A stretch of 64,000 bases of DNA, taken from NCBI RefSeq assembly GCF_963676685.1, contig NC_092353.1, forward strand, positions 26,555,690 to 26,619,689, read 5' to 3'. Below the pieces are notes generated by a model. It worked only from the letters and a program-made list of their open reading frames with translations, had not been told where the DNA came from and ran no database searches. Every line of letters starts with the position of its first letter. Within the stretch, counting starts at the first letter, position 1. A program made the position numbers and the translations under genes. The DNA comes from Mytilus edulis. Lineage: Eukaryota. Shown piece by piece: positions 13,687 through 47,577 of the stretch.

Positions 13687-15082
13687 CTGTCAGTTTCGGC
13701 TAACTGGATTTCAAATAAATATGTTCATAATCTTTACCATGTAATACATATGCATCAAATTGTAAAAAAAAATATGTTAAAATTTCATAAAGTAAAAAAG
13801 AAAAAAATCCAAAAAATTACAATGCCCAAAATAGTGAATAGAACATACCTACAACCCAAAGGAAAGCTACAATCCAATGTTTCATTCATAAGGATCTCTT
13901 ACTCCACATGTTTTCTAAACTAAGGTCATTTATTTATCCACCTGGACAATATTTACAGTGAAACCTCTTAGTACTGATTTTTTTACACTTACATTTATAC
14001 TTGCGTTAGAAAGAAACAAACCAGTTCTTGGATCAAATTGCATATAGAAGGCACATCTGTATAAACTTAAATATGTCTAAACTTAACCACCAATCTGACC
14101 ACATATTTTGATTTATTTCATAGATTCACATAATATGATTTCACTGTAAATTAATTATCATGACTTGACAATACTATGTAATCCACAATAAAAAGTACAT
14201 GCTATAATGAAATAACTATACAATAATTATCAATTATTAATTACCAACAATCATTGTAACTATAAATTCTTTATGGATAACTAATTTGTCAAATATAATC
14301 AAGTTTAAGATTCAATTAGATAGGAAATCTTTTTGTCTGTATCTTATCTCTGTCATGTGGAGATGTGGACTAGATGTATAACAAGTACTAGGGGTCAAGG
14401 ATTTATAACTAATATTCATCCTTGCTAGGGTGCTTATAATTGATGTATTTGCAAAGCACTATCATTGTGTCTAACGCAAATCAAATGAAATAATTTACGA
14501 ATTATGTTCAATTCAATATTTGACCCTAAAACAAGCATTTTTATATTTTTTGTATAATCTAATTTAATATGCTAATCATTGTTACGATTTTTTACTTAAC
14601 AGTTCTCTGTAAGAAAAAAAACCCTAACCTTTCTATGCATTGGACCACAATCTAAATAAATAATGACCTTAAAGGGACATCCATTGTTTAACTGCTGTTC
14701 TCAAAGATACTACTGACCCAGCTCTGCTGTAAGTGGATGGCTGCTTACTAGACTGTTTTTAATTCATCAATCAAGTAGCCTTGTATTTTTGATAACATCT
14801 TAACTACCCAGTACAGCGTCTCACTTTAAAAAAAAAGGCCTGTTACCTATCGCCTTTTGGATTTGATTTTACAGTATTTACAACTTCAATATAAATTACA
14901 AACATTTTTTTGGTCTCTTCATTTAATAAGACATGATCATAGAACAACATGTGATCTATTGTTATCCGATTGCTCCAGGTGACAAAACAAGACAGGTATA
15001 TTATCAATTAGCGTAAATAAATAATGACATATAGTCTGTTGTATCATCCCTACAGGTAGTAATGATGTCATAAGATTAATGA

Positions 15083-18000
15083 AGAATCACTGATACATCG
15101 TACCTACACCCACCAAAACACTCATGTATCTATTCTCTTTACAACAAGCTTAGAGAATCACTGCTACATCGTACCTACACCCACCAAAACACTCATGTAT
15201 CTATTCTCTTTACAACAAGCTTAGAGAATCACTGCTACATCGTACCTACACCCACCAAAACACTCATGTATCTATTCTCTTTACAACAAGCTTAGAGAAT
15301 CACTGCTACATCTTACCTACACCCACCAAAACACTCATGTATCTATTCTCTTTACAACAAGCTTAGAGAATCACTGCTACATCGTACCTACACCCATCAA
15401 AACACTCATGTATCTATTCTCTTTACAACAAGCTTAGAGAATCACTGCTACATCGTACCTACACCCACCAAAACACTCATGTATCTATTCTCTTTACAAC
15501 AAGCTTAGAGAATCACTGCTACATTGTACCTACACCCACCAAAACACTCATGTATCTCTTCTCTTTACAACAAGCTTAGAGAATCACTGCTACATCGTAC
15601 CTACACCCACCAAAACACTCATGTATCTATTCTCTTTACAACAAGCTTAGAGAATCACTGCTACATCGTACCTACACCCACCAAAACACTCATGTATCTA
15701 TTCTCTTTACAACAAGCTTAGAGAATCACTGCTACATCGTACCTACACCCACCAAAACACTCATGTATCTATTCTCTTTACAACAAGCTTAGAGAATCAC
15801 TGCTACATTGTACCTACACCCACCAAAACACTCATGTATCTATTCTCTTTACAACAAGCTTAGAGAATCACTGCTACATTGTACCTACACCCACCAAAAC
15901 ACTCATGTATCTATTCTCTTTACAACAAGCTTAGAGAATCACTGCTACATCGTACCTACACCCACCAAAACACTCGTGTATCTATTCTCTTTACAACAAG
16001 CTTAGAGAATCACTGCTACATCGTACCTACACCCACCAAAACACTCGTGTATCTCTTCTCTTTACAACAAGCTTAGAGAATCACTGCTACATCGTACCTA
16101 CACCCACCAAAACACTCATGTATCTATTCTCTTTACAACAAGCTTAGAGAATCACTGCTACATCGTACCTACACCCAACCAAAACACTCATGTATCTATT
16201 CTCTTTACAACAAGCTTAGAGAATCACTGCTACATCGTACCTACACCCACCAAAACACTCATGTATCTATTCTCTTTACAACAAGCTTAGAGAATCACTG
16301 CTACATCGTACCTACACCCACCAAAACACTCATGTATCTATTCTCTTTACAACAAGCTTAGAGAATCACTGCTACATCTTACCTACACCCACCAAAACAC
16401 TCATGTATCTATTCTCTTTACAACAAGCTTAGAGAATCACTGTTACATTGTACCTACACCCACCAAAACACTCATGTATCTATTCTCTTTACAACAAGCT
16501 TAGAGAATCACTGCTACATCGTACCTACACCCACCAAAACACTCATGTATCTATTCTCTTTACAACAAGCTTAGAGAATCACTGCTACATTGTACCTACA
16601 CCCACCAAAACACTCATGTATCTCTTCTCTTTACAACAAGCTTAGAGAATCACTGTTACATCGTACCTACACCCATCAAAACAGTCGTGTATCTATTCTC
16701 TTTACAACAAGCTTAGAGAATCACTGCTACATCGTACCTACACCCACCAAAACACTCATGTATCTATTCTCTTTACAACAAGCTTAGAGAATCACTGCTA
16801 CATCGTACCTACACCCACCAAAACACTCATGTATCTATTCTCTTTACAACAAGCTTAGAGAATCACTGTTACATCTTACCTACACCCACCAAAACACTCA
16901 TGTATCTATTCTCTTTACAACAAGCTTAGAGAATCACTGCTACATCTTACCTACACCCAACCAAAACACTCATGTATCTCTTCTCTTTACAACAAGCTTA
17001 GAGAATCACTGTTACATCGTACCTACACCCATCAAAACAGTCGTGTATCTATTCTCTTTACAACAAGCTTAGAGAATCACTGCTACATCTTACCTACACC
17101 CAACCAAAACACTCATGTATCTCTTCTCTTTACAACAAGCTTAGAGAATCACTGCTACATCGTACCTACACCCACCAAAACACTCATGTATCTATTCTCT
17201 TTACAACAAGCTTAGAGAATCACTGCTACATCGTACCTACACCCACCAAAACACTCATGTACATCGTACCTACACCCACCAAAACACTCGTGTACATCGT
17301 ACCTACACCCACCAAAACACTCATGTATCTCTTCTCTTTACAACAAACTTAGAGAATCACTGCTACATCGTACCTACACCCACCAAAACACTCATGTATC
17401 TCTTCTCTTTACAACAAGCTTAGAGAATCACTGTTACATCGTACCTACACCCAACCAAAACACTCATGTATCTCCTCTCTTTACAACAAGCTTAGAGAAT
17501 CACTGCTACATCGTACCTACACCCACCAAAACACTCATGTATCTATTCTCTTTACAACAAGCTTAGAGAATCACTGCTACATCGTACCTACACCCAACCA
17601 AAACACTCATGTATCTATTCTCTTTACAACAAGCTTAGAGAATCACTGCTACATCGTACCTACACCCACCAAAACACTCATGTATCTATTCTCTTTACAA
17701 CAAGCTTAGAGAATCACTGCTACATCGTACCTACACCCAACCAAAACACTCATGTATCTATTCTCTTTACAACAAGCTTAGAGAATCACTGCTACATCGT
17801 ACCTACACCCACCAAAACACTCATGTATCTATTCTCTTTACAACAAGCTTAGAGAATCACTGCTACATCGTACCTACACCCAACCAAAACACTCATGTAT
17901 CTATTCTCTTTACAACAAGCTTAGAGAATCACTGTTACATCGTACCTACACCCACCAAAACACTCATGTATCTCCTCTCTTTACAACAAGCTTAGAGAAT

Positions 18001-19405
18001 CACTGCTACATCGTACCTACACCCACCAAAACACTCATGTATCTCTTCTCTTTACAACAAGCTTAGAGAATCACTGCTACATCGTACCTACACCCACCAA
18101 AACACTCATGTATCTATTCTCTTTACAACAAGCTTAGAGAATCACTGCTACATCGTACCTACACCCACCAAAACACTCATGTATCTATTCTCTTTACAAC
18201 AAGCTTAGAGAATCACTGCTACATCTTACCTACACCCACCAAAACACTCATGTATCTATTCTCTTTACAACAAGCTTAGAGAATCACTGCTACATCGTAC
18301 CTACACCCATCAAAACACTCATGTATCTATTCTCTTTACAACAAGCTTAGAGAATCACTGTTACATCTTACCTACACCCACCAAAACACTCATGTATCTA
18401 TTCTCTTTACAACAAGCTTAGAGAATCACTGCTACATCGTACCTACACCCACCAAAACACTCATGTATCTATTCTCTTTACAACAAGCTTAGAGAATCAC
18501 TGCTACATCTTACCTACACCCACCAAAACACTCATGTATCTATTCTCTTTACAACAAGCTTAGAGAATCACTGCTACATCGTACCTACACCCATCAAAAC
18601 ACTCATGTATCTATTCTCTTTACAACAAGCTTAGAGAATCACTGCTACATCGTACCTACACCCACCAAAACACTCATGTATCTATTCTCTTTACAACAAG
18701 CTTAGAGAATCACTGCTACATCTTACCTACACCCACCAAAACACTCATGTATCTATTCTCTTTACAACAAGCTTAGAGAATCACTGCTACATCGTACCTA
18801 CACCCATCAAAACACTCATGTATCTATTCTCTTTACAACAAGCTTAGAGAATCACTGTTACATCTTACCTACACCCACCAAAACACTCATGTATCTATTC
18901 TCTTTACAACAAGCTTAGAGAATCACTGCTACATCGTACCTACACCCACCAAAACACTCATGTATCTATTCTCTTTACAACAAGCTTAGAGAATCACTGC
19001 TACATCGTACCTACACCCAACCAAAACACTCATGTATCTATTCTCTTTACAACAAGCTTAGAGAATCACTGCTACATCGTACCTACACCCACCAAAACAC
19101 TCATGTATCTATTCTCTTTACAACAAGCTTAGAGAATCACTGTTACATCGTACCTACACCCACCAAAACACTCATGTATCTATTCTCTTTACAACAAGCT
19201 TAGAGAATCACTGCTACATCGTACCTACACCCACCAAAACACTCATGTACATCGTACCTACACCCACCAAAACACTCGTGTACATCGTACCTACACCCAC
19301 CAAAACACTCATGTATCTCTTCTCTTTACAACAAGCTTAGAGAATCACTGCTACATCGTACCTACACCCAACCAAAACACTCATGTATCTCCTCTCTTTA
19401 CAAGA
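15083..19405. repeat. Satellite DNA array, 71-bp monomer (about 61 copies; consensus ~catcgtacctacacccaccaaaacactcatgtatctattctctttacaacaagcttagagaatcactgcta), with monomer variants and a ~2-kb higher-order periodicity
   Basis: Head-to-tail 71-bp periodicity is directly visible. Recurrent variant sites are catcgt/cattgt/catctt, caccaaaac/caaccaaaac/catcaaaac and tctattc/tctcttc/tctcctc. The paired truncated ~35-bp units at 17250-17320 recur at 19238-19310. Confidence 0.95.
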
Positions 19406-21229
19406 AACTTCGTATACTTTATTTTTGTATTTGTACAAAGATATTTAAAGACATGTACCATCTGCAGAAGTGATGTCAACTTTAATTTGGATCCTAGATT
19501 TTGAATTGTTTGACCGGTTTTACTGTTAATGTCCTCCTTATCTTTTACTCCCTTAAATAACATGTTATGTTGCTTTTTACTACAACACCTACTTACATGG
19601 AAGGTTGAAGGTTGGGGGGAAAAATGAAGGAACCCAAATGATGTACTTAAGTTTTTCCAAATTGTAATGAAAAATACAAGAACCATGCATGCAATAATCT
19701 TACTTGTGTTCCATGAACCAATGAAAACGGAAGTAAGCAGCAAACCAATATACCTTTCACAAAATACTCAGAAGATCAGAATGCAAACACAGTCTTAATT
19801 ATTATTCAACCTTATACATAATGATACATATACTTCTGTATCAAAACCATTATGATTATTACTTGGATGTACTTCAAAAGTTTAAATATACATGTACTAT
19901 TCTGAACCATATTTATCCTATGGTTATTGAAACCAATTGGCTGTTAATCTTCTGTTCTATTTTCCATTGACAACTTTTGACCTACAAATTAGATTATGGA
20001 ACCTAAAACCTTCATGTCAACAAATACATCTTTAATGGCTCTTATAAAATAAATCAAGTTTCACAAATCTCTGTTATATAAGCTTCTTTATGGATAAATG
20101 TGCTACATTGCACAATTTTTCCCTTGAGATTAAATTTCACAGACATCTAGAACAAATCTTATAGAAAACAGAAAACTTTACCACTACTAAAGTAAACAAT
20201 GAATGGAGGATTGAGGAAATTCAATGAATGTCTACTTAATTCACAAATAATCCTTAGTGCACTGCTTGTGGTGTGCACAATATTACATAATCTAATTCAT
20301 TCTAAGTAACGTAAATAAAACATCAAGATGCATCAAATAATCTTTACAAATTTCACTGCACATTGGTGGACATAATTTTTTTTCAATACAAGTCATTCTG
20401 AAAAATCTTAGAAGTTATACTTGACTTATGTTGCCAAGTCATAACTGAATCAAGTAGAGTTTAATTAGAATTTTACAGACTTGGCCCCATGTCCATTAAT
20501 TGACTTATTCAGGACAGCTTTTTACCAAAATTTAAGAATTATGATTAAGTTGTATCTTCTGAAAATTTGAGCCCACTCCTATACCTCCTCCTTAAAAATA
20601 ACCAACAAATAAAAACAACCAAAAGAATATTTTACTTGAACTGAAATTCAATTGGATTTTTGCTGATGCTTCATAGACAAAGATTCCATCGGTAACTTAA
20701 ATTGAGATGAAAAATGGACATGCAAGTTTGGATAGCTATAGCCAAAAGCATAGGGAGTCAAACTTTTAACCTGAGATTTATGCTTTATTAAAACATCATC
20801 AAAGGTCAATTGTCTATCAATATCTTGTATTTGAACCACATTAAAGGTTAATGGTTTGATAAATTACCTTGTTAACGTACACATTTTTTAACCATAAGAT
20901 AGTTTTTTGCATAAAATTTCAACTTTCCCCGATAAAACAAATATTCATTATTATGATTAATCACAATACAAAGTAACCTTCAATATAATACAAGAGAACT
21001 TTAAATCGAGCAAAACAATACACTTATAATTTTGTTTTCCTTGTTTTCTTGACTGAATGGGTTTTAAAAATATTAAGATCAATTTTTTGAGTGAAAAATG
21101 TATAGTCCATCTAACTCAACCTCAGAGACTACCACCAGCCCCTTTTTTCAAATTTATTTTTTTTATATTTTACACTGCATTACAATTATATCAGAAACAG
21201 ATACACCTAAATTAATAAAATTTTAAAAA

Positions 21230-26789: not shown

Positions 26790-27380
26790 AAATGCTAAAA
26801 ACAGAAGGACCTTTATCCAAGTAAAGTGAAAGCTAAAAACAGAAGGACCTTACCACAGTAAAGTGAAAGCTGAAAACAGAAGGACCTTTACCCAACTAAA
26901 GTGAAAGCTAAAACTGGAAGATCTACCATAGTATAGTAAAAGCTAGAAACCTCAGGACCTTCTAAAGTAAAGTGAAAGCTGAAAGCCAGAGGACCTACCA
27001 AAGTAAAGTAAATGCTGAAAATATGAGAACCTACACCCAAGTACAGCTAAAAAATAAAAGAATACATATCACAATACAGTGAAATCTTCAAACAGATGAA
27101 GACTCACGCATACAGTGAAAGCTGTAAACAGAACACGGTCTTGTAAGGACTATAAATAAAAGAGGGATTAACAAAATTCAATGAAAGCTGAACATGATAA
27201 AATCTACCAAAGCTGTAAACAGAACATGTTGTATCTAATAGAAGAAATTCTACAGCTACTATCAAAGTATCACGAAAGCTGGAAAACAGTAAAATCCATA
27301 TCAAAGCTGTAAACTCTATATATAATATTCAATAGAAGAAGACCTACCCTAAAAGTGTAAAGAAAGCTGTAAACATTAAA
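26790..27380. repeat. Degenerate minisatellite with a ~38-bp unit (ctaaaaacagaaggacctttatccaagtaaagtgaaag), decaying towards 27380
   Basis: There are at least 8 recognisable head-to-tail units. Confidence 0.8.
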
Positions 27381-33410: not shown

Positions 33411-34374
33411 GCCTTCTATACTAATCATTGATATTATGTTGATGGTCCTAAGTATAAAGCTAAGATTTATTACAACTATCACATAAACAGAACATTAACC
33501 AAGATAACTAAACAAAGACCAATGAACCTTGAAAATGAGGTCAAGGTCAGATGAACCATGCCAGGCAGACATGTACAGCTAACAATGCTTCTATACAACA
33601 TATATAGTTGACCTTTTACTTATAGTTTAAGAAAAATAGACCAAAACACAAAAACTTAACACTGTGCAATGAACCGTGAAAATGAGGTCATGGTAAAAAA
33701 AAACCTGCACGACTGACATAAAGATCATAAATTATTTCCATACACCAAATATAGTTGACCTATGGCATATAGAATTAGATAAAAGGACCAAAACTCAAAA
33801 ACTTAACTTTGACCACTGAACCATGAAAATGAGGTCAAGGTCACATGACATCTGCCCGCTAGACATGTACACCTTACAATCATTCCATACAACAAATATT
33901 GTAGACCTATTGCATATAGTATGAGAAAAACAGACCAAAACACAAAAATTTAACTATAACCACTGAACCATGAAAATGAGGTCAAGGTCAGATGACACCT
34001 GCCAGTTGGACTTGTACACCTTACAGTCCGTCCATACACCGAATATACTAGCCCTATTGCTTATAGTATCTAAAATATGGACTTGACCACCAAAACTTAA
34101 CCTTGTTCACTGATCCATGAAATTAGGTTGAGGTCAAGTGAAAACTGTCTGACAGACATGAGGACCTTGCAAGGTACGCACTTATCCAATATAGTTATCC
34201 TATTACTTATAATAAGAGAGAATTCAACATTACAAAAAATCTTAACTTTTTTTTCAAGTGGATACTGAACCATGAAAATGAGGTCAAGGACATTGGACAT
34301 GTGACTGACGGAAACTTCGTAACATGAGGCATCTATATACAAAGTATGAAGCATCCAGGTCTTCCACCTTCTAA

Positions 34375-41060: not shown

Positions 41061-41303
41061 AGGAAACTAAGGGACGACATCAAAAGTTCAATGAAGGATA
41101 AAAAACTTAATTCACATAGTTTTTTCACTGACCCCCACACCCCCCCTCTTAACTTAATTTGGGAAAAATTGATTGACCAATAGGGATATATGTAAAATCG
41201 ATTTTAGATTAACAAAACTTGCAGCCATGTTGACCCCCCCACCCCCAAACTATTTGATTTAAGTTTTTTATCCTACATCGATCTTTTGATGTCGTCCCTA
41301 ATG
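41061..41303. mobile_element. MITE (~235 bp) with ~45-bp TIRs (taagggacgacatcaaaag..ggataaaaaacttaa), located 190 bp downstream of the TRIM-like gene
   Basis: The left arm 41061-41110 is the reverse complement of the right arm 41257-41303. Confidence 0.7.
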
Positions 41304-41453: not shown

Positions 41454-41459
41454 TTTATT
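41454..41459 (-). terminator. Candidate AATAAA polyadenylation signal about 35 nt downstream of the TRIM-like stop codon
   Basis: The plus-strand tttatt at 41454-41459 reads AATAAA on the minus strand. Confidence 0.3.
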
Positions 41460-41493: not shown

Positions 41494-43245
41494 CTAGAAT
41501 CCAGAATATTCCAACTCATAAATTTTGGCTTTTAAAGTTTCTTGGCTGTCCCTTGTATTTGAGCATCCTACATAAATATGTCCTTCTGTAGACAAAGTGA
41601 GTCTACATGGATATATAATTCCAATGTCATGCAGATTGTAATGACCAATAAATTTCCCCTCAGAGTTCAATATGTGTAGTGTAGAAATGAATATATCTGT
41701 AACTAAAATATTATCTGCAGGAGTTGTAAGCAGGTCAGAGGGCGTAAATGTTTTTTCTTCAGTGTTGATTTTTGGTTGACCAATGTACACCTGTTTGATA
41801 TCTCCTTCTTTTCCTAATACCAAGACTCTACAATCAGAATCTATCCCATCCACAACACAGATATTGCCATTGTTGGTGCTTGTAATTAATCTAGGCCGTG
41901 TAAATAATGGTTCTTTGTTGCTGTCTTCTTCATATTTTTCCAAGCATCCACCATCCTGGCCCATCACTACCACAGCAGCCTTCGTTCCTCTTCGTCCTAC
42001 ACCTACTATAACTCTGTTATCTTTGGTTATATGGACACATACTGGTTGACTTTGTGATGTACAATTTGTATATGGTCTCACAACATAATTGGATTCATCA
42101 TGTTTGAGCCATACAGTGCTACTATTGATAATAAACAGTTTTGTTTCACTGATAATAAACAGTTTTGTTTCACCTAAGGCTGCTTCAACCAGGTTTGTGC
42201 ATGCATTCATTGCTGCCATGTCACAAATAGAAAAACAGTTTGACTCTGACATAATCGTAATATTTTGATTATCAAATTTTATATGTTGCAACTTTTCAAG
42301 AATACCATCATAAATCCACAGAGTACCATCAGAACATCTGCAAATATTATGAACATTTCTTAATTGTGTGGTGAATTGTTTAGCAATTTTAAACTCAATT
42401 TTAGGATGTTGAATTTCCAAGTTTCCTCTATTTTCCATTGATCCAAAATTTACCATTGTAATTTTGTCTGGCAAGAATCTCCCCAATAATGAAAACTCAA
42501 GGTTTTCTTGTGGTGTAGCTCCACACAAAGAAACAGCAAATTTATCAAAATCATCAAAGAATTTGACAAAATCTTTTGAAGTTGTAATACTTTTTACAGT
42601 GTTACTCTTCCTCTGTAATTTTTTTAAGGTTTTCTTAATCTTGCTATGCTTTGCCCCGATTTCCTGGCTATTTAATTCCCATGTCTGCTCCAGATCTTTT
42701 ACAAGATTATCAGCATGCTTATCAACTTCACACTTAAAAGCATCCCTGTGACTAAGGATATCTTGCTTGATTTTTCTAAATTTAGCATCTTCCTGATCTT
42801 TTATGTCCTGAACTTTGTGTAATGTACTGGTCAAATTATGTATACTTTCATCAGCTTTCTTCTGTCCACTTTTAGTTATCGTCTTTTTATCATTAAGCTC
42901 TTCTTCATCAATAAAGGTGTGTCCATTGTGGACTTTGGTTACACATTTTAAACAGATGACTTTCTTACAAGTTTGACAGTATACACAGCAAGCCTGGTCT
43001 GGATGTTCTAGACATTTAACATCTCTAAAGTTAAATGTATCCACTTCTTCTTCCAGATCCAGCTCTTTAATGTCTCTAATCCTATGTTCAGTTGCATTTT
43101 TAAATCTAGCATGGACTTTATCCTTGCATCGGCTGCACATTAAAAGTTGACAGTCCAAACATTTAAATTTGATTTTATTCCCACCATCACAAAGTTCACA
43201 ACCTACTGGAATTTGTCCTCTTTGTAAAGACTTAGAAGAAGCCAT
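41494..43245 (-). CDS. Intronless TRIM-like protein (583 aa): two B-box zinc fingers, a coiled-coil and a C-terminal NHL-like beta-propeller, with no RING finger
   Basis: Uninterrupted 583-codon ORF. N-terminal CELCDGGNKIKFKCLDCQLLMCSRCKDKVHARF is B-box1-like. CLEHPDQACCVYCQTCKKVICLKCVTKVHNGH fits the B-box2 pattern C-x2-H-x7-C-x7-C-x2-C-x5-H-x2-H. A charged heptad-like region spans aa ~115-240. C-terminal motifs GNICVVDGIDSDCRVLVLGKEG and DNILVTDIFISTLHILNSEGKFIGHY are NHL-like. Confidence 0.8.
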   Translation of the reverse strand: MASSKSLQRGQIPVGCELCDGGNKIKFKCLDCQLLMCSRCKDKVHARFKNATEHRIRDIKELDLEEEVDTFNFRDVKCLEHPDQACCVYCQTCKKVICLKCVTKVHNGHTFIDEEELNDKKTITKSGQKKADESIHNLTSTLHKVQDIKDQEDAKFRKIKQDILSHRDAFKCEVDKHADNLVKDLEQTWELNSQEIGAKHSKIKKTLKKLQRKSNTVKSITTSKDFVKFFDDFDKFAVSLCGATPQENLEFSLLGRFLPDKITMVNFGSMENRGNLEIQHPKIEFKIAKQFTTQLRNVHNICRCSDGTLWIYDGILEKLQHIKFDNQNITIMSESNCFSICDMAAMNACTNLVEAALGETKLFIISETKLFIINSSTVWLKHDESNYVVRPYTNCTSQSQPVCVHITKDNRVIVGVGRRGTKAAVVVMGQDGGCLEKYEEDSNKEPLFTRPRLITSTNNGNICVVDGIDSDCRVLVLGKEGDIKQVYIGQPKINTEEKTFTPSDLLTTPADNILVTDIFISTLHILNSEGKFIGHYNLHDIGIIYPCRLTLSTEGHIYVGCSNTRDSQETLKAKIYELEYSGF

Positions 43246-44024
43246 TTTTGAAGTCTGAAGTTAAAAAACCATATATATATATCAAAACTTTTAATCAAAT
43301 TATTAACACTTGTAGATATAATATGAAAGATAAAATATGAGGTTAATTAGATATGACATGTGTAATGTACATTTAAAATAAAGATGGACAGTGTTATCTT
43401 GTTTATTTGCTGCATCATATAACTTTTTTTTTATCAGGATAGGGGAAGCTAGTACACAAAAACATAATATTTTTTTTTTTTAAATATTATCCTTTAAGGG
43501 CAATAACTCATAAAATTATGATTAGTATGTAATATTTGCTACTGTCGTATAAGCAACAATATTTTATCATTGTATAAAAAAAATGTATTATTCTAATTTG
43601 CTACAATTTCAGCAGCAATATCTGCTTAAAATTAACCAGAAAATTTGTTATAATTTTGACCGATATTTTTGGTCTTATTGATTTAGTTTTTAAATGACAA
43701 CCCATAATTCTGTTTTGAGAAACAGTTGTTTTGTTTGTTATTGTTTAAAATCTTAGATAATTAAATTTCAATAGTAATTGCAAGTTACTTCCCTTAGCTG
43801 AAATGTTGAAGGTGCAACTGGTTGATTAATCCTTTTGAAAAAACAAAATTGAAAGCTAGTCGGAGAAAAGATTTTTAATTGATCATTAGTGATGCATTAT
43901 GTGAATGATAAAAAAAAAATTGTTGAGAAAACATTTTTTTTTCTTCTGGTCTAGCATCCACATGCAGTGAAACAATACAACATAGCAACAAAAGAGAAAT
44001 ACCTCTTACCCAAATCAAAAGGTA

Positions 44025-46425: not shown

Positions 46426-46470
46426 ATGCCGAGAATTATGATAAAAGGAGGTGTTTGGCGTAACACGGAG
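46426..46470 (+). CDS. CDC5L: CDC5L (cell division cycle 5-like / Cef1 pre-mRNA splicing factor) exon 1: MPRIMIKGGVWRNTE followed by a GTAAAT donor
   Basis: ATG in a ccaagATGcc context. The 15 codons are identical to the conserved CDC5L N-terminus. The donor GT is at 46471. Confidence 0.85.
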
Positions 46471-46489
46471 GTAAATGTCCATACATTAT

Positions 46490-47577
46490 TGGAAGTTTTT
46501 TACTCTTTTTAATATACATTAATGATTTTCCAGAATACCTGGAACACAGCAAACTACGACTCTTCGCTGATGACAGTATTATATACCGAGAAATAACATG
46601 TCAACAAGACTGCACAAATTTACAAAAAGATCTTAACGCAGCAGCGAAATGGGAGGCTGATTGGCTCATGGCCTTCCATCCTGGAAAATGCACTATCTTA
46701 ACCATCACACAAAAAAAACAACCATTTAAACACGATTACATCCTTCATAACCATACTTTAGAACTAGTAACATCTGCAAAATATCTTGGCGTAACCCTAC
46801 AGTCTAACTTAAAATGGAACATTCACTACAACAACATCGTATCAAATGCAAATAAATCTCTTGGCTTTCTTAGGCGAAACTTAAAAATTTCTAACTCCAG
46901 TATCAAATCCCGTGCTTACCAATCAATAGTGAGACCAAAACTCGAATATGCCTGTAGTCTATGGGATCCACACACAGCAGATTATAAAAATAAGCTAGAA
47001 ATGGTACAGAGGCGTGCGGCCCGATATGTATGTAACAATTACCACAACACCAGTAGCGTTACATCCATGTTAAACGAACTACAATGGCCCTCACTCAGTG
47101 AGCGCCGCCTCAAAACCAGACTTATCATGTTCTACAAGGTCATCCATGGACTCATTGCAATCCCATCACTAGTCCTCATACCATCAGATACTAGAACAAG
47201 AAAATGACATACTCAAACATTTCGGCAAATATCCACCTCTAAAGACAGCTACAAATGGTCATTCTTTCCGCAAACAATCATTCAATGGAACATGTTGCCA
47301 CAAGTTGTGGTAGCAAGTCAAACCATTGAAATTTACAGAGATCAGTTGACACCAACTGTTCTCCACAACATAATTTAATTCTATAAATAACAATGTACAT
47401 ATTTTTTAATCACTTGTTGTTTTCTTTCATGTAAATATCACCAAGTATTCTACTAAGTTAAAGATAAATTTTTGTTCATATTTTTTAATCATATACTCCG
47501 CGCATGCAACAGTTCGTAATCTTCAATAATAATGAAGCTGTAACTGTATATCAGAAGAAGAAGAAGAAGAAGAAGTT
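46490..47577 (+). mobile_element. 5'-truncated non-LTR retrotransposon fragment (CR1/L2/RTE-like RT C-terminal domain plus 3' tail ending in an (AAG)7 microsatellite), located in CDC5L intron 1
   Basis: In-frame translation gives ..LLFLIYINDFPEYLEHSKLRLFADDSIIYREI..LQKDLNAAAKWEADWLMAFHPGKC..KYLGVTL.., which contains the FADD catalytic motif and a YINDxP motif typical of CR1-clade RTs. The ORF decays after 47207, and the element ends in (gaa)n at 47556-47576. Confidence 0.8.

Follow-up and report, generated by a model that had tools for sequence, protein, structure and literature searches.

A 64-kb stretch of Mytilus edulis DNA with a GC content of ~31% (the window) contains just one open reading frame (ORF) of 200 aa or more, the runner-up being 197 aa. 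What does this ORF encode, and is it a functional gene? With its ATG start, it runs over 41494..43245 on the minus strand, and its 583-aa translation is exactly RefSeq XP_071136338.1, an M. edulis "uncharacterized protein."

41494..43245, minus strand: single-exon CDS, 583 codons plus stop, assigned by identity to XP_071136338.1.

The original prediction of an uninterrupted, intronless coding region is supported by this identity and by all six family genes checked at the DNA level (the window gene, three Mytilus counterparts, and two paralogs), in each of which the CDS is a single exon spanning exactly 3 × (aa + 1) nt. No break in the ORF was seen in four haplotypes plus M. trossulus, which together cover three species (M. 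edulis, M. galloprovincialis, and M. trossulus); in each of the three, the syntenic neighbor is CDC5L, arranged head to head. No paralog fragments were found elsewhere in the window, and an Rfam scan of the entire window gave 0 matches. We consider it probable that 41494..43245 is a functional protein-coding gene of M. edulis, with one coding exon, belonging to a RING-less, Mytilus-specific TRIM-like family. The gene was already annotated but uncharacterized, and its recognition is a correct but ordinary observation.

What kind of protein does the gene encode? Five segments can be delimited from the N terminus to the C terminus.

43072..43200, minus strand: B-box 1 (aa 16 to 58), the best Pfam zf-B_box stretch.
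42907..43014, minus strand: B-box 2 (aa 78 to 113), from the second zf-B_box stretch and PDB matches.
42526..42906, minus strand: coiled-coil region (aa 114 to 240), from AlphaFold2 secondary structure and phmmer.
42397..42525, minus strand: linker, probably disordered (aa 241 to 283), from low model confidence and no Pfam match.
41497..42396, minus strand: six-bladed NHL-type beta-propeller (aa 284 to 583), from the AlphaFold2 model, Foldseek, and phmmer.

Pfam zf-B_box matches the protein in two stretches. The eight zinc ligands of B-box 1 (C16, C19, C29, C32, C37, C40, H45, and H54) are all invariant in 57 family members, those of B-box 2 (C78, H81, C90, C93, C98, C101, H106, and H109) are invariant or nearly so in the same set, and 16 of 16 are intact in the 583-aa protein itself. 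B-box 1 begins at residue 16 of the protein. In phmmer searches of PDB, B-box 2 matched the B-box2 domains of MID1, TRIM29, and TRIM28, and query residues 16 to 207 matched the B-box-coiled-coil of TRIM28/KAP1. AlphaFold2 (AF2) predicts a coiled-coil of ~125 residues, made of a long helix (114 to 221) and a second helix (226 to 240). Model confidence (pLDDT) falls below 50 over aa 236 to 280, and no filamin/Ig domain was found between the coiled-coil and the NHL domain, aa 241 to 283 forming a low-confidence linker with no Pfam match. This linker sits where TRIM2, TRIM3, and TRIM71 have their filamin domain.

For the C-terminal half the evidence is of a different kind. A Pfam HMM check bore out the predicted B-boxes (39.1 bits versus a cutoff of 24.1) but not, on the 583-aa protein alone, the predicted NHL propeller (12.9 bits, under the cutoff of 20). 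Nevertheless, the NHL assignment is confirmed by other methods. The TRIM2 NHL domain was matched by query residues 422 to 563 (phmmer versus PDB, E 3.9e-6). A Pfam scan of 57 full-length family members found B-box in 57/57, NHL in 24/57 (E≤0.01), and RING in 0/57. The best Foldseek PDB matches of the AF2 model are the NHL domains of TRIM2, TRIM3, Lin41, Brat, Thin, and Mei-P26 (E 1.8e-14 to 1e-11, target TM ~0.73), with TRIM2/TRIM3 the best. In the AF2 models 24 propeller strands build six four-strand blades, with a pLDDT of 81 to 94 except in the duplication area (aa 361 to 400) and the block 561 to 570. Pfam found no RING in the protein or its 57 relatives, and none of the reading frames across the 64 kb contains a C3HC4-like motif or a RING exon. 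Pfam zf-B_box, AF2, Foldseek, and phmmer therefore agree on the RING-less B-box1/B-box2/coiled-coil/NHL layout first proposed; against a strict TRIM (RBCC) definition, the B-boxes and the coiled-coil are present and the N-terminal RING is absent.

How large is the family to which this protein belongs? Homolog representatives number 2093 at E≤1e-3, 542 at 1e-10, and 146 at 1e-30, the last being the family clusters defined at 50% identity and E≤1e-30. Most family representatives are ~555 to 580 aa long and align from residue 1. Named members in the 20 clusters sampled for genus were all Mytilus, and unnamed Logan and ENA members could be other mytilids. A profile search for non-Mytilus relatives with the 57-member alignment added nothing to the 25 proteins already recovered with the single sequence. 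The predicted large lineage-specific expansion is upheld by the count of at least 146 clusters and by this genus sampling, and the "incomplete TRIM" family that includes this gene is both very large and specific to Mytilus. Family members are spread over many chromosomes, and their public annotation is inconsistent (TRIM71-like, TRIM33, TRIM9/67, or uncharacterized). None of the papers covered by the literature search links Mytilus, tripartite motif, and NHL repeat, and the pan-genome papers are silent on TRIM or B-box. The gene alone is of little importance, as an annotated member of a huge family with a long-known Brat-type architecture; what the analysis documents is the Mytilus expansion of a whole ~560-aa RING-less TRIM-NHL family. 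An M. californianus protein (P0004) considered as the ortholog was rejected, as its gene is located inside a giant tyrosinase/VWC gene; an M. galloprovincialis paralog (P0005) likewise lies within the tyrosinase/VWC gene, 15.6 Mb from the orthologous locus.

A coding region without introns invites the idea, put forward originally, that the gene was recently retroposed from a multi-exon TRIM-NHL parent, and homology to the tyrosinase/VWC-nested paralog is indeed limited to the CDS plus ~4 nt upstream and ~20 nt downstream. This limit is uninformative, however, since noncoding flanks would not align anyway at a dS of ~0.5. Single-exon CDSs in 5/5 relatives (the three counterparts and two paralogs above), with no multi-exon parent found, and the synteny of the locus across three species make a recent retrocopy highly improbable. 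Of the hallmarks of a processed retrogene, the locus has the intronless coding region, but a poly(A) remnant, flanking direct repeats, and a parent gene are not evident. Because the relatives are single-exon and the locus is syntenic in three species, any retroposition would be ancient, ancestral to the family rather than specific to this gene.

The flanks of the coding region contain three further features.

41068..41301, no strand assigned: MITE-like element of 228 bp (41071 to 41298) plus TAA duplications, from inverted arms, target-site duplication, and empty site.
41454..41459, minus strand: candidate AATAAA poly(A) signal, 34 nt past the stop, from sequence reading.
43255..43268, minus strand: acceptor-like ttttttaacttcag, 9 nt 5' of the ATG, from sequence reading.

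The MITE had been placed ~190 bp downstream of the gene and does lie there, 195 nt past the stop codon, with 53-nt arms (41070 to 41122 and 41247 to 41299) that are 91% complementary and a TAA target-site duplication at 41068 to 41070 and 41299 to 41301. The same site is precisely empty in both M. galloprovincialis assemblies (L001 and L005), which, with the short noncoding sequence, the inverted arms, and the TAA duplication, completes the structural signature of a MITE. By this comparison the element is an insertion in this M. edulis haplotype, absent from M. galloprovincialis. No further copies were found in the 64-kb window or in ~137 kb of Mytilus loci. Farther along, a LINE-like insert of 1.07 kb occupies 46499 to 47571. 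The AATAAA, expected ~35 nt after the stop, was likewise located; it is kept in M. galloprovincialis and is not at that position in M. trossulus. Upstream, ttttttaacttcag is shared by M. edulis and M. galloprovincialis and is missing from M. trossulus and from the M. californianus paralog; a 5'-UTR intron might use it as its 3' splice site. Four Logan contigs were rejected as cDNAs, as they look genomic: L004, which carries the window protein, matches the genome collinearly over 220 nt 5' of the ATG and ends 1 nt after the stop, and L008 to L010, from relatives, have AT-rich flanks and no poly(A).

The propeller contains a tandem repeat, and the question is how old it is.

42126..42173, minus strand: perfect 24-nt tandem duplication, two copies, from TRF and codon alignment.

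TRF gives a period of 24, 2.0 copies, and 100% matches. An exact 24-bp duplication had originally been placed at 42127 to 42174; it is real and in-frame, but its phase was 1 nt off, which created an apparent t/c mismatch. It encodes ETKLFIIS|ETKLFIIN (aa 359 to 374), and the codon alignment attributes the S/N difference between the copies to the junction codon (AGT versus AAT). In the AF2 models and the NHL motif register, the duplicated unit corresponds to the B-C turn plus strand C of propeller blade 2. Four haplotypes carry the duplication, namely the M. edulis window itself, a Logan contig, and a pair of independent M. galloprovincialis assemblies; in one of the four the junction codon has mutated from AGT to ATT. 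The duplication is missing from the syntenic M. trossulus ortholog and all other relatives. The junction (...IIS|ETK...) persists in XP_071153503.1, a 90%-identical M. edulis paralog on another chromosome, whose protein sequence alone suggests a 24-nt duplication followed by a 15-nt loss. Given the four haplotypes, the paralog trace, and the M. trossulus ortholog without it, the duplication is younger than the M. trossulus split, yet neither a private nor a very young allele. The claim of a "very young indel or polymorphic allele" is thus not supported, in view of its presence in 4/4 haplotypes, the mutated junction in one of them, and the trace in the paralog.

Blade 2 has three lineage-specific insertions in the codon alignment, and this part is modeled with low confidence: pLDDT is below 50 at aa 369 to 378 of the window protein, whereas the duplication-free paralog P0005 stays at 84 to 95 through the equivalent site. 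Loops connecting the blades differ among TRIM-NHL structures (PMC9634614). We propose that a slippage-type tandem duplication copied strand C of blade 2 within a propeller indel hot spot of this clade; M. edulis and M. galloprovincialis now share it, through common ancestry or introgression, and it is evidently tolerated. The locus thereby offers a natural case of a single beta-strand duplicated in-frame inside a propeller blade and persisting in two species, and the duplication could serve as a dated marker (M. edulis/M. galloprovincialis/M. trossulus) and in studies of the insertion tolerance of propellers.

Is the gene still under constraint? Comparison with M. trossulus gives a dN/dS of 0.51 for the full coding region, 0.30 for the B-boxes, and 0.56 for the propeller. 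Within the set of four M. edulis and M. galloprovincialis haplotypes, 14/14 segregating sites are nonsynonymous, and dN between haplotypes (0.003 to 0.009) is close to the divergence of the flanking noncoding DNA (0.4 to 0.6%). These polymorphism figures, together with the three blade-2 insertions and the low model confidence around them, are what a duplicate gene drifting toward pseudogenization might show, its blade 2 damaged by the strand duplication and indels and now under little constraint. Such decay is distinctly unlikely, since the ORF is unbroken in four haplotypes and M. trossulus, the zinc ligands are complete, dN/dS is below 1, and 0/14 synonymous changes are fewer than neutrality predicts (P about 0.04). 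The last signal is weak, because at ~0.4 to 0.6% flank divergence only ~2 synonymous differences are expected per haplotype pair. We prefer the reading of a functional gene, on which selection, judged from these comparisons, is purifying but relaxed; the 14 nonsynonymous sites and three blade-2 insertions could equally reflect recently relaxed constraint.

What might such a protein do? TRIM proteins suggest an analogy in which the long helix would form an antiparallel coiled-coil dimer with one propeller at each end, the B-boxes would drive higher-order assembly, and the fast-evolving propeller would be the ligand-recognition module; dimerization and ligand binding are inferred from this analogy. 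As it lacks a RING, the protein would have no E3 ligase activity of its own, and its role may be that of a sensor, a scaffold, or a regulator, perhaps in pairs with RING-bearing relatives. A role in defense or stress is plausible on the same analogy; the original "immune-type" label is unsupported beyond two hints, fast evolution (a dN/dS of ~0.5) and the excess of nonsynonymous polymorphism. A bolder version, which we hold to be rather doubtful, would make the Mytilus family a diversified cytosolic recognition repertoire, with the NHL propeller in the part played by B30.2/SPRY in vertebrate antiviral TRIMs; the blade-2 duplication, the indels, and the all-nonsynonymous polymorphism would then reflect diversifying selection, rather than drift, acting on a surface that binds ligands or serves as a decoy.

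[quoted passage not shown] The domain layout is the same as that of Brat, an "incomplete TRIM" without RING (PMC4015489), and the NHL domains of Brat, Lin41, TRIM71, and Mei-P26 are among the top fold matches. However, identity to those domains is just 14 to 18%, and the mussel propeller is net acidic (pI 5.65, 29 K+R versus 36 D+E, net charge -7, a crude proxy for surface charge), whereas the top surface is strongly positive in those TRIM-NHL domains that bind RNA (PMC4015489, PMC9634614). The Mytilus family also comprises at least 146 diverged, fast-evolving clusters, against the few conserved developmental TRIM-NHL genes, three in flies and four in C. elegans (PMC4015489). An RNA-binding repressor is therefore unlikely.

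How does the mussel protein compare with known systems? Drosophila Brat shares its B-box1, B-box2, coiled-coil, and six-bladed NHL, and likewise lacks a RING and a filamin domain (PMC4015489). The mussel protein is not a Brat ortholog, and identity between the propellers is ~14 to 15%. Brat regulates development, is conserved and low in copy number, and binds RNA through a basic top surface, whereas the mussel protein is short (583 aa), has an acidic propeller, and comes from a fast-evolving family of at least 146 clusters. The vertebrate class VII proteins TRIM2/TRIM3, the best propeller matches, have the order B-box2, coiled-coil, and NHL in common with it, but they carry a RING with E3 ligase activity and a filamin domain, both absent from the mussel protein, which unlike them has two B-boxes. 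The filamin domain, present in TRIM2, TRIM3, and TRIM71, is also lacking in TRIM32 and Brat.

At the family level, fish finTRIM and primate TRIM5-like clusters are lineage-specific TRIM expansions. Like the mussel family, such expansions show large genus or species copy numbers, a C-terminal recognition domain that evolves rapidly, and many members labeled just "B box-type domain-containing." Vertebrate immune TRIM expansions keep the RING and end in B30.2/SPRY, whereas the mussel family has an NHL propeller and no RING family-wide. A bivalve-expanded B-box orthogroup (PMC8382680) is, like the mussel family, a lineage-specific TRIM expansion. RING-less vertebrate TRIMs such as TRIM29 combine B-box and coiled-coil without RING, as the mussel protein does, and act as adaptors or regulators, not autonomous E3 ligases (PMC8720877); they have no NHL propeller and are not close to the mussel protein in sequence.

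The uninterrupted ORF of the original prediction is present on the minus strand (41494..43245; 583 aa, starting with ATG). It is far beyond chance expectation, because DNA of ~31% GC, as in this window, is rich in stop codons; no other ORF in the 64-kb window reaches 200 aa, the runner-up having 197 aa. RefSeq XP_071136338.1, "uncharacterized protein [Mytilus edulis]," recorded on an 84.8-Mb chromosome, is an exact match over all 583 aa, and near-identical copies occur in M. galloprovincialis 'Lola' (VDI05859.1; locus L001), the M. galloprovincialis chromosome assembly (XP_076079271.1; locus L005), and one Logan contig (L004). Within a huge Mytilus-specific family of RING-less TRIM-NHL proteins, the gene is an unremarkable member whose sequence had already been deposited. 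The features around it are as follows.

41068-41301: inverted-repeat element (MITE; 228 bp at 41071-41298) with a TAA target-site duplication on each side
41454-41459: candidate AATAAA, 34 nt past the stop, a putative poly(A) signal read from the sequence
46427-46471, plus strand: first exon (MPRIMIKGGVWRNTE, with a gtaaat donor after it) of a CDC5L-type Myb gene

The HMM evidence for the predicted domains was divided: Pfam zf-B_box matched two stretches of the protein at 39.1 bits (cutoff, 24.1), whereas NHL scored 12.9 bits, under its cutoff of 20. phmmer searches of PDB sequences recovered the NHL domain of TRIM2 (E value, 3.9e-6; query 422-563), the B-box/coiled-coil region of TRIM28 (query 16-207), and the B-boxes of MID1. 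An AlphaFold2 model built with 26 homologues as input (mean pLDDT, 71.7) gave, together with Pfam for the B-boxes, the following layout.

aa 16-58: B-box1
aa 78-113: B-box2
aa 114-221 (108 residues), then 226-240: coiled-coil helices
about aa 241-283: linker, low confidence
aa 284-583: propeller of 24 strands, pLDDT 81-94 except at aa 361-400 (around the duplication) and in the 561-570 block

The best Foldseek matches in the PDB were the NHL domains of TRIM2, TRIM3, Lin41/TRIM71, Brat, Thin, and Mei-P26 (E values, 1.8e-14 to 1e-11; target TM, ~0.73). The zinc ligands of B-box1 (C16 C19 C29 C32 C37 C40 H45 H54) and B-box2 (C78 H81 C90 C93 C98 C101 H106 H109) have canonical spacing and are invariant or nearly so among 57 family members. 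B-box1 starts as early as residue 16, no RING family in Pfam matched the protein or its 57 relatives, and no C3HC4-like motif was seen in any frame of the 64-kb window. The prediction of a B-box1/B-box2/coiled-coil/NHL protein without RING is borne out; its domain architecture, its fold, the conservation of its zinc sites, and the family-wide absence of RING are established.

Searched exhaustively with phmmer, 1.84 billion representatives yielded 2093 proteins at E<=1e-3, 542 at E<=1e-10, and 146 at E<=1e-30, most of them 550 to 580 aa long with alignments beginning at residue 1. All named members in the 20 clusters sampled, with identity down to 26%, come from Mytilus (M. edulis, M. galloprovincialis, M. 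trossulus, M. californianus, and M. coruscus), which supports a lineage-specific expansion. The sampled members are scattered over many chromosomes and inconsistently annotated (TRIM71-like, TRIM33, TRIM9/67, B box-type domain-containing, or uncharacterized). Among full-length members, a B-box was found in 57/57, NHL in 24/57 (E<=0.01), and RING in 0/57. An expanded B-box orthogroup has been reported in bivalves (PMC8382680); our literature search found no paper on this specific Mytilus family. The proteins P0004 (M. californianus) and P0005 (M. galloprovincialis), 62 to 65% identical to the window protein, were rejected as the same gene: they represent a different paralogue, which sits within a giant tyrosinase/VWC gene on the same chromosome, at a distance of 15.6 Mb.

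The coding region is intronless, as predicted. At the DNA level, six family CDSs were checked, namely that of the window gene, those of its three counterparts in Mytilus, and those of two paralogues; all measure exactly 3 × (aa + 1) nt. The single-exon state is common to every relative examined and to the syntenic orthologues and is thus ancestral rather than recent; the analysis found neither a parent gene nor a poly(A) remnant or flanking repeats, and the proposal of a retroposed copy is not upheld. Logan contigs carrying family sequence look genomic. An acceptor-like ttttttaacttcag 9 nt 5' of the ATG makes an intron in the 5' UTR possible.

The 24-nt tandem duplication is real, in frame, and perfect (TRF: 42126-42173, period 24, 2.0 copies, 100% matches). 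In coding orientation it reads GGT GAA ACA AAA CTG TTT ATT ATC A/GT GAA ACA AAA CTG TTT ATT ATC A/AT and encodes ETKLFIIS/ETKLFIIN (aa 359-374). The t/c mismatch noted originally is only apparent, arising from coordinates shifted by 1 nt, and the S/N difference is due to the junction codon alone. The duplication is present in 4/4 haplotypes of the M. edulis/M. galloprovincialis gene, with a later change of the junction codon from AGT to ATT (S366I) in L005. The M. trossulus syntenic orthologue and all other relatives carry the single-copy consensus GETxLKIIN-STTGQIT-DSNYD. P0002 (XP_071153503.1), a 574-aa M. edulis paralogue, 90% identical and on a different, 108-Mb chromosome, reads ...ETKLLIIS ETK SSTVW...: the IIS/ETK junction is kept and the next five residues are missing. 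Judged from the protein sequences, this retained junction would place the interchromosomal gene duplication after the 24-nt duplication, and the most economical history would be the 24-nt duplication, then the gene duplication, then a 15-nt deletion. The 24-nt duplication is younger than the M. trossulus split (dS, 0.18) and common to two species of the M. edulis complex via shared ancestry or introgression. A very young indel or polymorphic allele, as first proposed, does not agree with its presence in all four haplotypes and both species; it is an older shared variant, neither private nor nascent.

According to the register of the NHL motif and the strands assigned in the two AlphaFold2 models, the copied unit comprises the B-C turn and strand C of blade 2. 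Without the duplication, P0005 has pLDDT values of 84 to 95 across the equivalent site; for the window protein, values at aa 369-378 are under 50. Directly after the duplication (~42058-42125; aa 375-396), the gene differs in length from M. trossulus and from the family consensus by two more lineage-specific changes: SSTVWLKHDE instead of STTGQITD, where the nucleotides look like several small frame-compensating indels, and a 9-nt insertion (NCT). These changes make blade 2 an indel hot spot of the M. edulis/M. galloprovincialis lineage. Connecting loops are the known variable parts of TRIM-NHL propellers (PMC9634614).

Selection on the gene is purifying but relaxed, as indicated by dN/dS values of 0.51 against M. 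trossulus (B-boxes, 0.30; coiled-coil, 0.51; propeller, 0.56) and 0.38 against the M. californianus paralogue. Among the window, L001, L005, and L004 (41497-43245), 14/14 segregating sites are nonsynonymous and none synonymous (probability, ~0.044 under strict neutrality; McDonald-Kreitman-like Fisher test against 118:54 fixed differences from M. trossulus, p = 0.011), an excess that is suggestive only, because four haplotypes from two species are pooled and flanking divergence is just 0.4 to 0.6%, at which few synonymous changes are expected anyway.

The locus is syntenic across M. edulis, M. galloprovincialis, and M. trossulus. Exon 1 of the CDC5L gene lies head-to-head with the window gene, 3.18 kb from its ATG, an arrangement kept in the other two species, and a shared bidirectional promoter region is accordingly possible. 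Intron 1 of the CDC5L gene holds a 1.07-kb insertion (46499-47571), missing in M. galloprovincialis (L001, L005) and M. trossulus (L002), with a reverse-transcriptase-like fragment (...LRLFADDSILYREI...) followed by a 179-aa ORF (46668-47207, plus strand) that had no match in Pfam.

On the other side, the predicted MITE and poly(A) signal both follow the stop, the MITE 195 nt past it and beyond the signal. Its inverted-repeat arms (41070-41122 and 41247-41299; 53 nt) are 91% complementary. Both M. galloprovincialis assemblies have the exact empty site ggaaacTAAtgag, which identifies the MITE as an insertion of this M. edulis haplotype only, either young or polymorphic. With a 3-bp TAA duplication, it would match elements of the PIF/Harbinger (Tourist-like) type; a 2-bp TA duplication is a possible alternative reading.

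Tandem repeats were also noted. A large satellite array at 15083-19410 (71-bp unit, 61 copies, 95% matches, C-rich on the plus strand) accounts for the raised GC at 14 to 20 kb and for the strong negative skew in GC there (-0.35 to -0.57). A 147-bp repeat at 33517-34136 (about 4 copies, 75% matches) turns up again in M. galloprovincialis, downstream of the gene (L001, ~18600-19400; L005, ~20350-21180), and also close to the M. californianus paralogue at its unrelated locus (L003, ~14550-16510); it is therefore dispersed in mussels, either as a satellite or as a repeat carried by transposable elements. A short array occupies 26794-27034 (36- to 37-bp unit, about 6.5 copies, 74 to 77% matches).

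How might such a protein work? By analogy with established TRIM biology, the long helix would form an antiparallel dimer presenting two propellers, the B-boxes would mediate higher-order assembly, and the propeller would be the recognition module. Lacking RING, the protein would not be an E3 ligase by itself and would rather serve as a sensor, scaffold, or regulator, possibly alongside RING-bearing relatives. The expansion and the evolutionary rate make a putative role in immunity or stress plausible. The layout is that of Drosophila Brat, termed an "incomplete TRIM," which shares the B1-B2-CC-NHL order without RING or filamin (PMC4015489). RNA binding of the Brat/LIN-41 type uses a basic top surface (PMC4015489, PMC9634614), and the net acidic propeller of the mussel protein (pI 5.65) speaks weakly against this mode.
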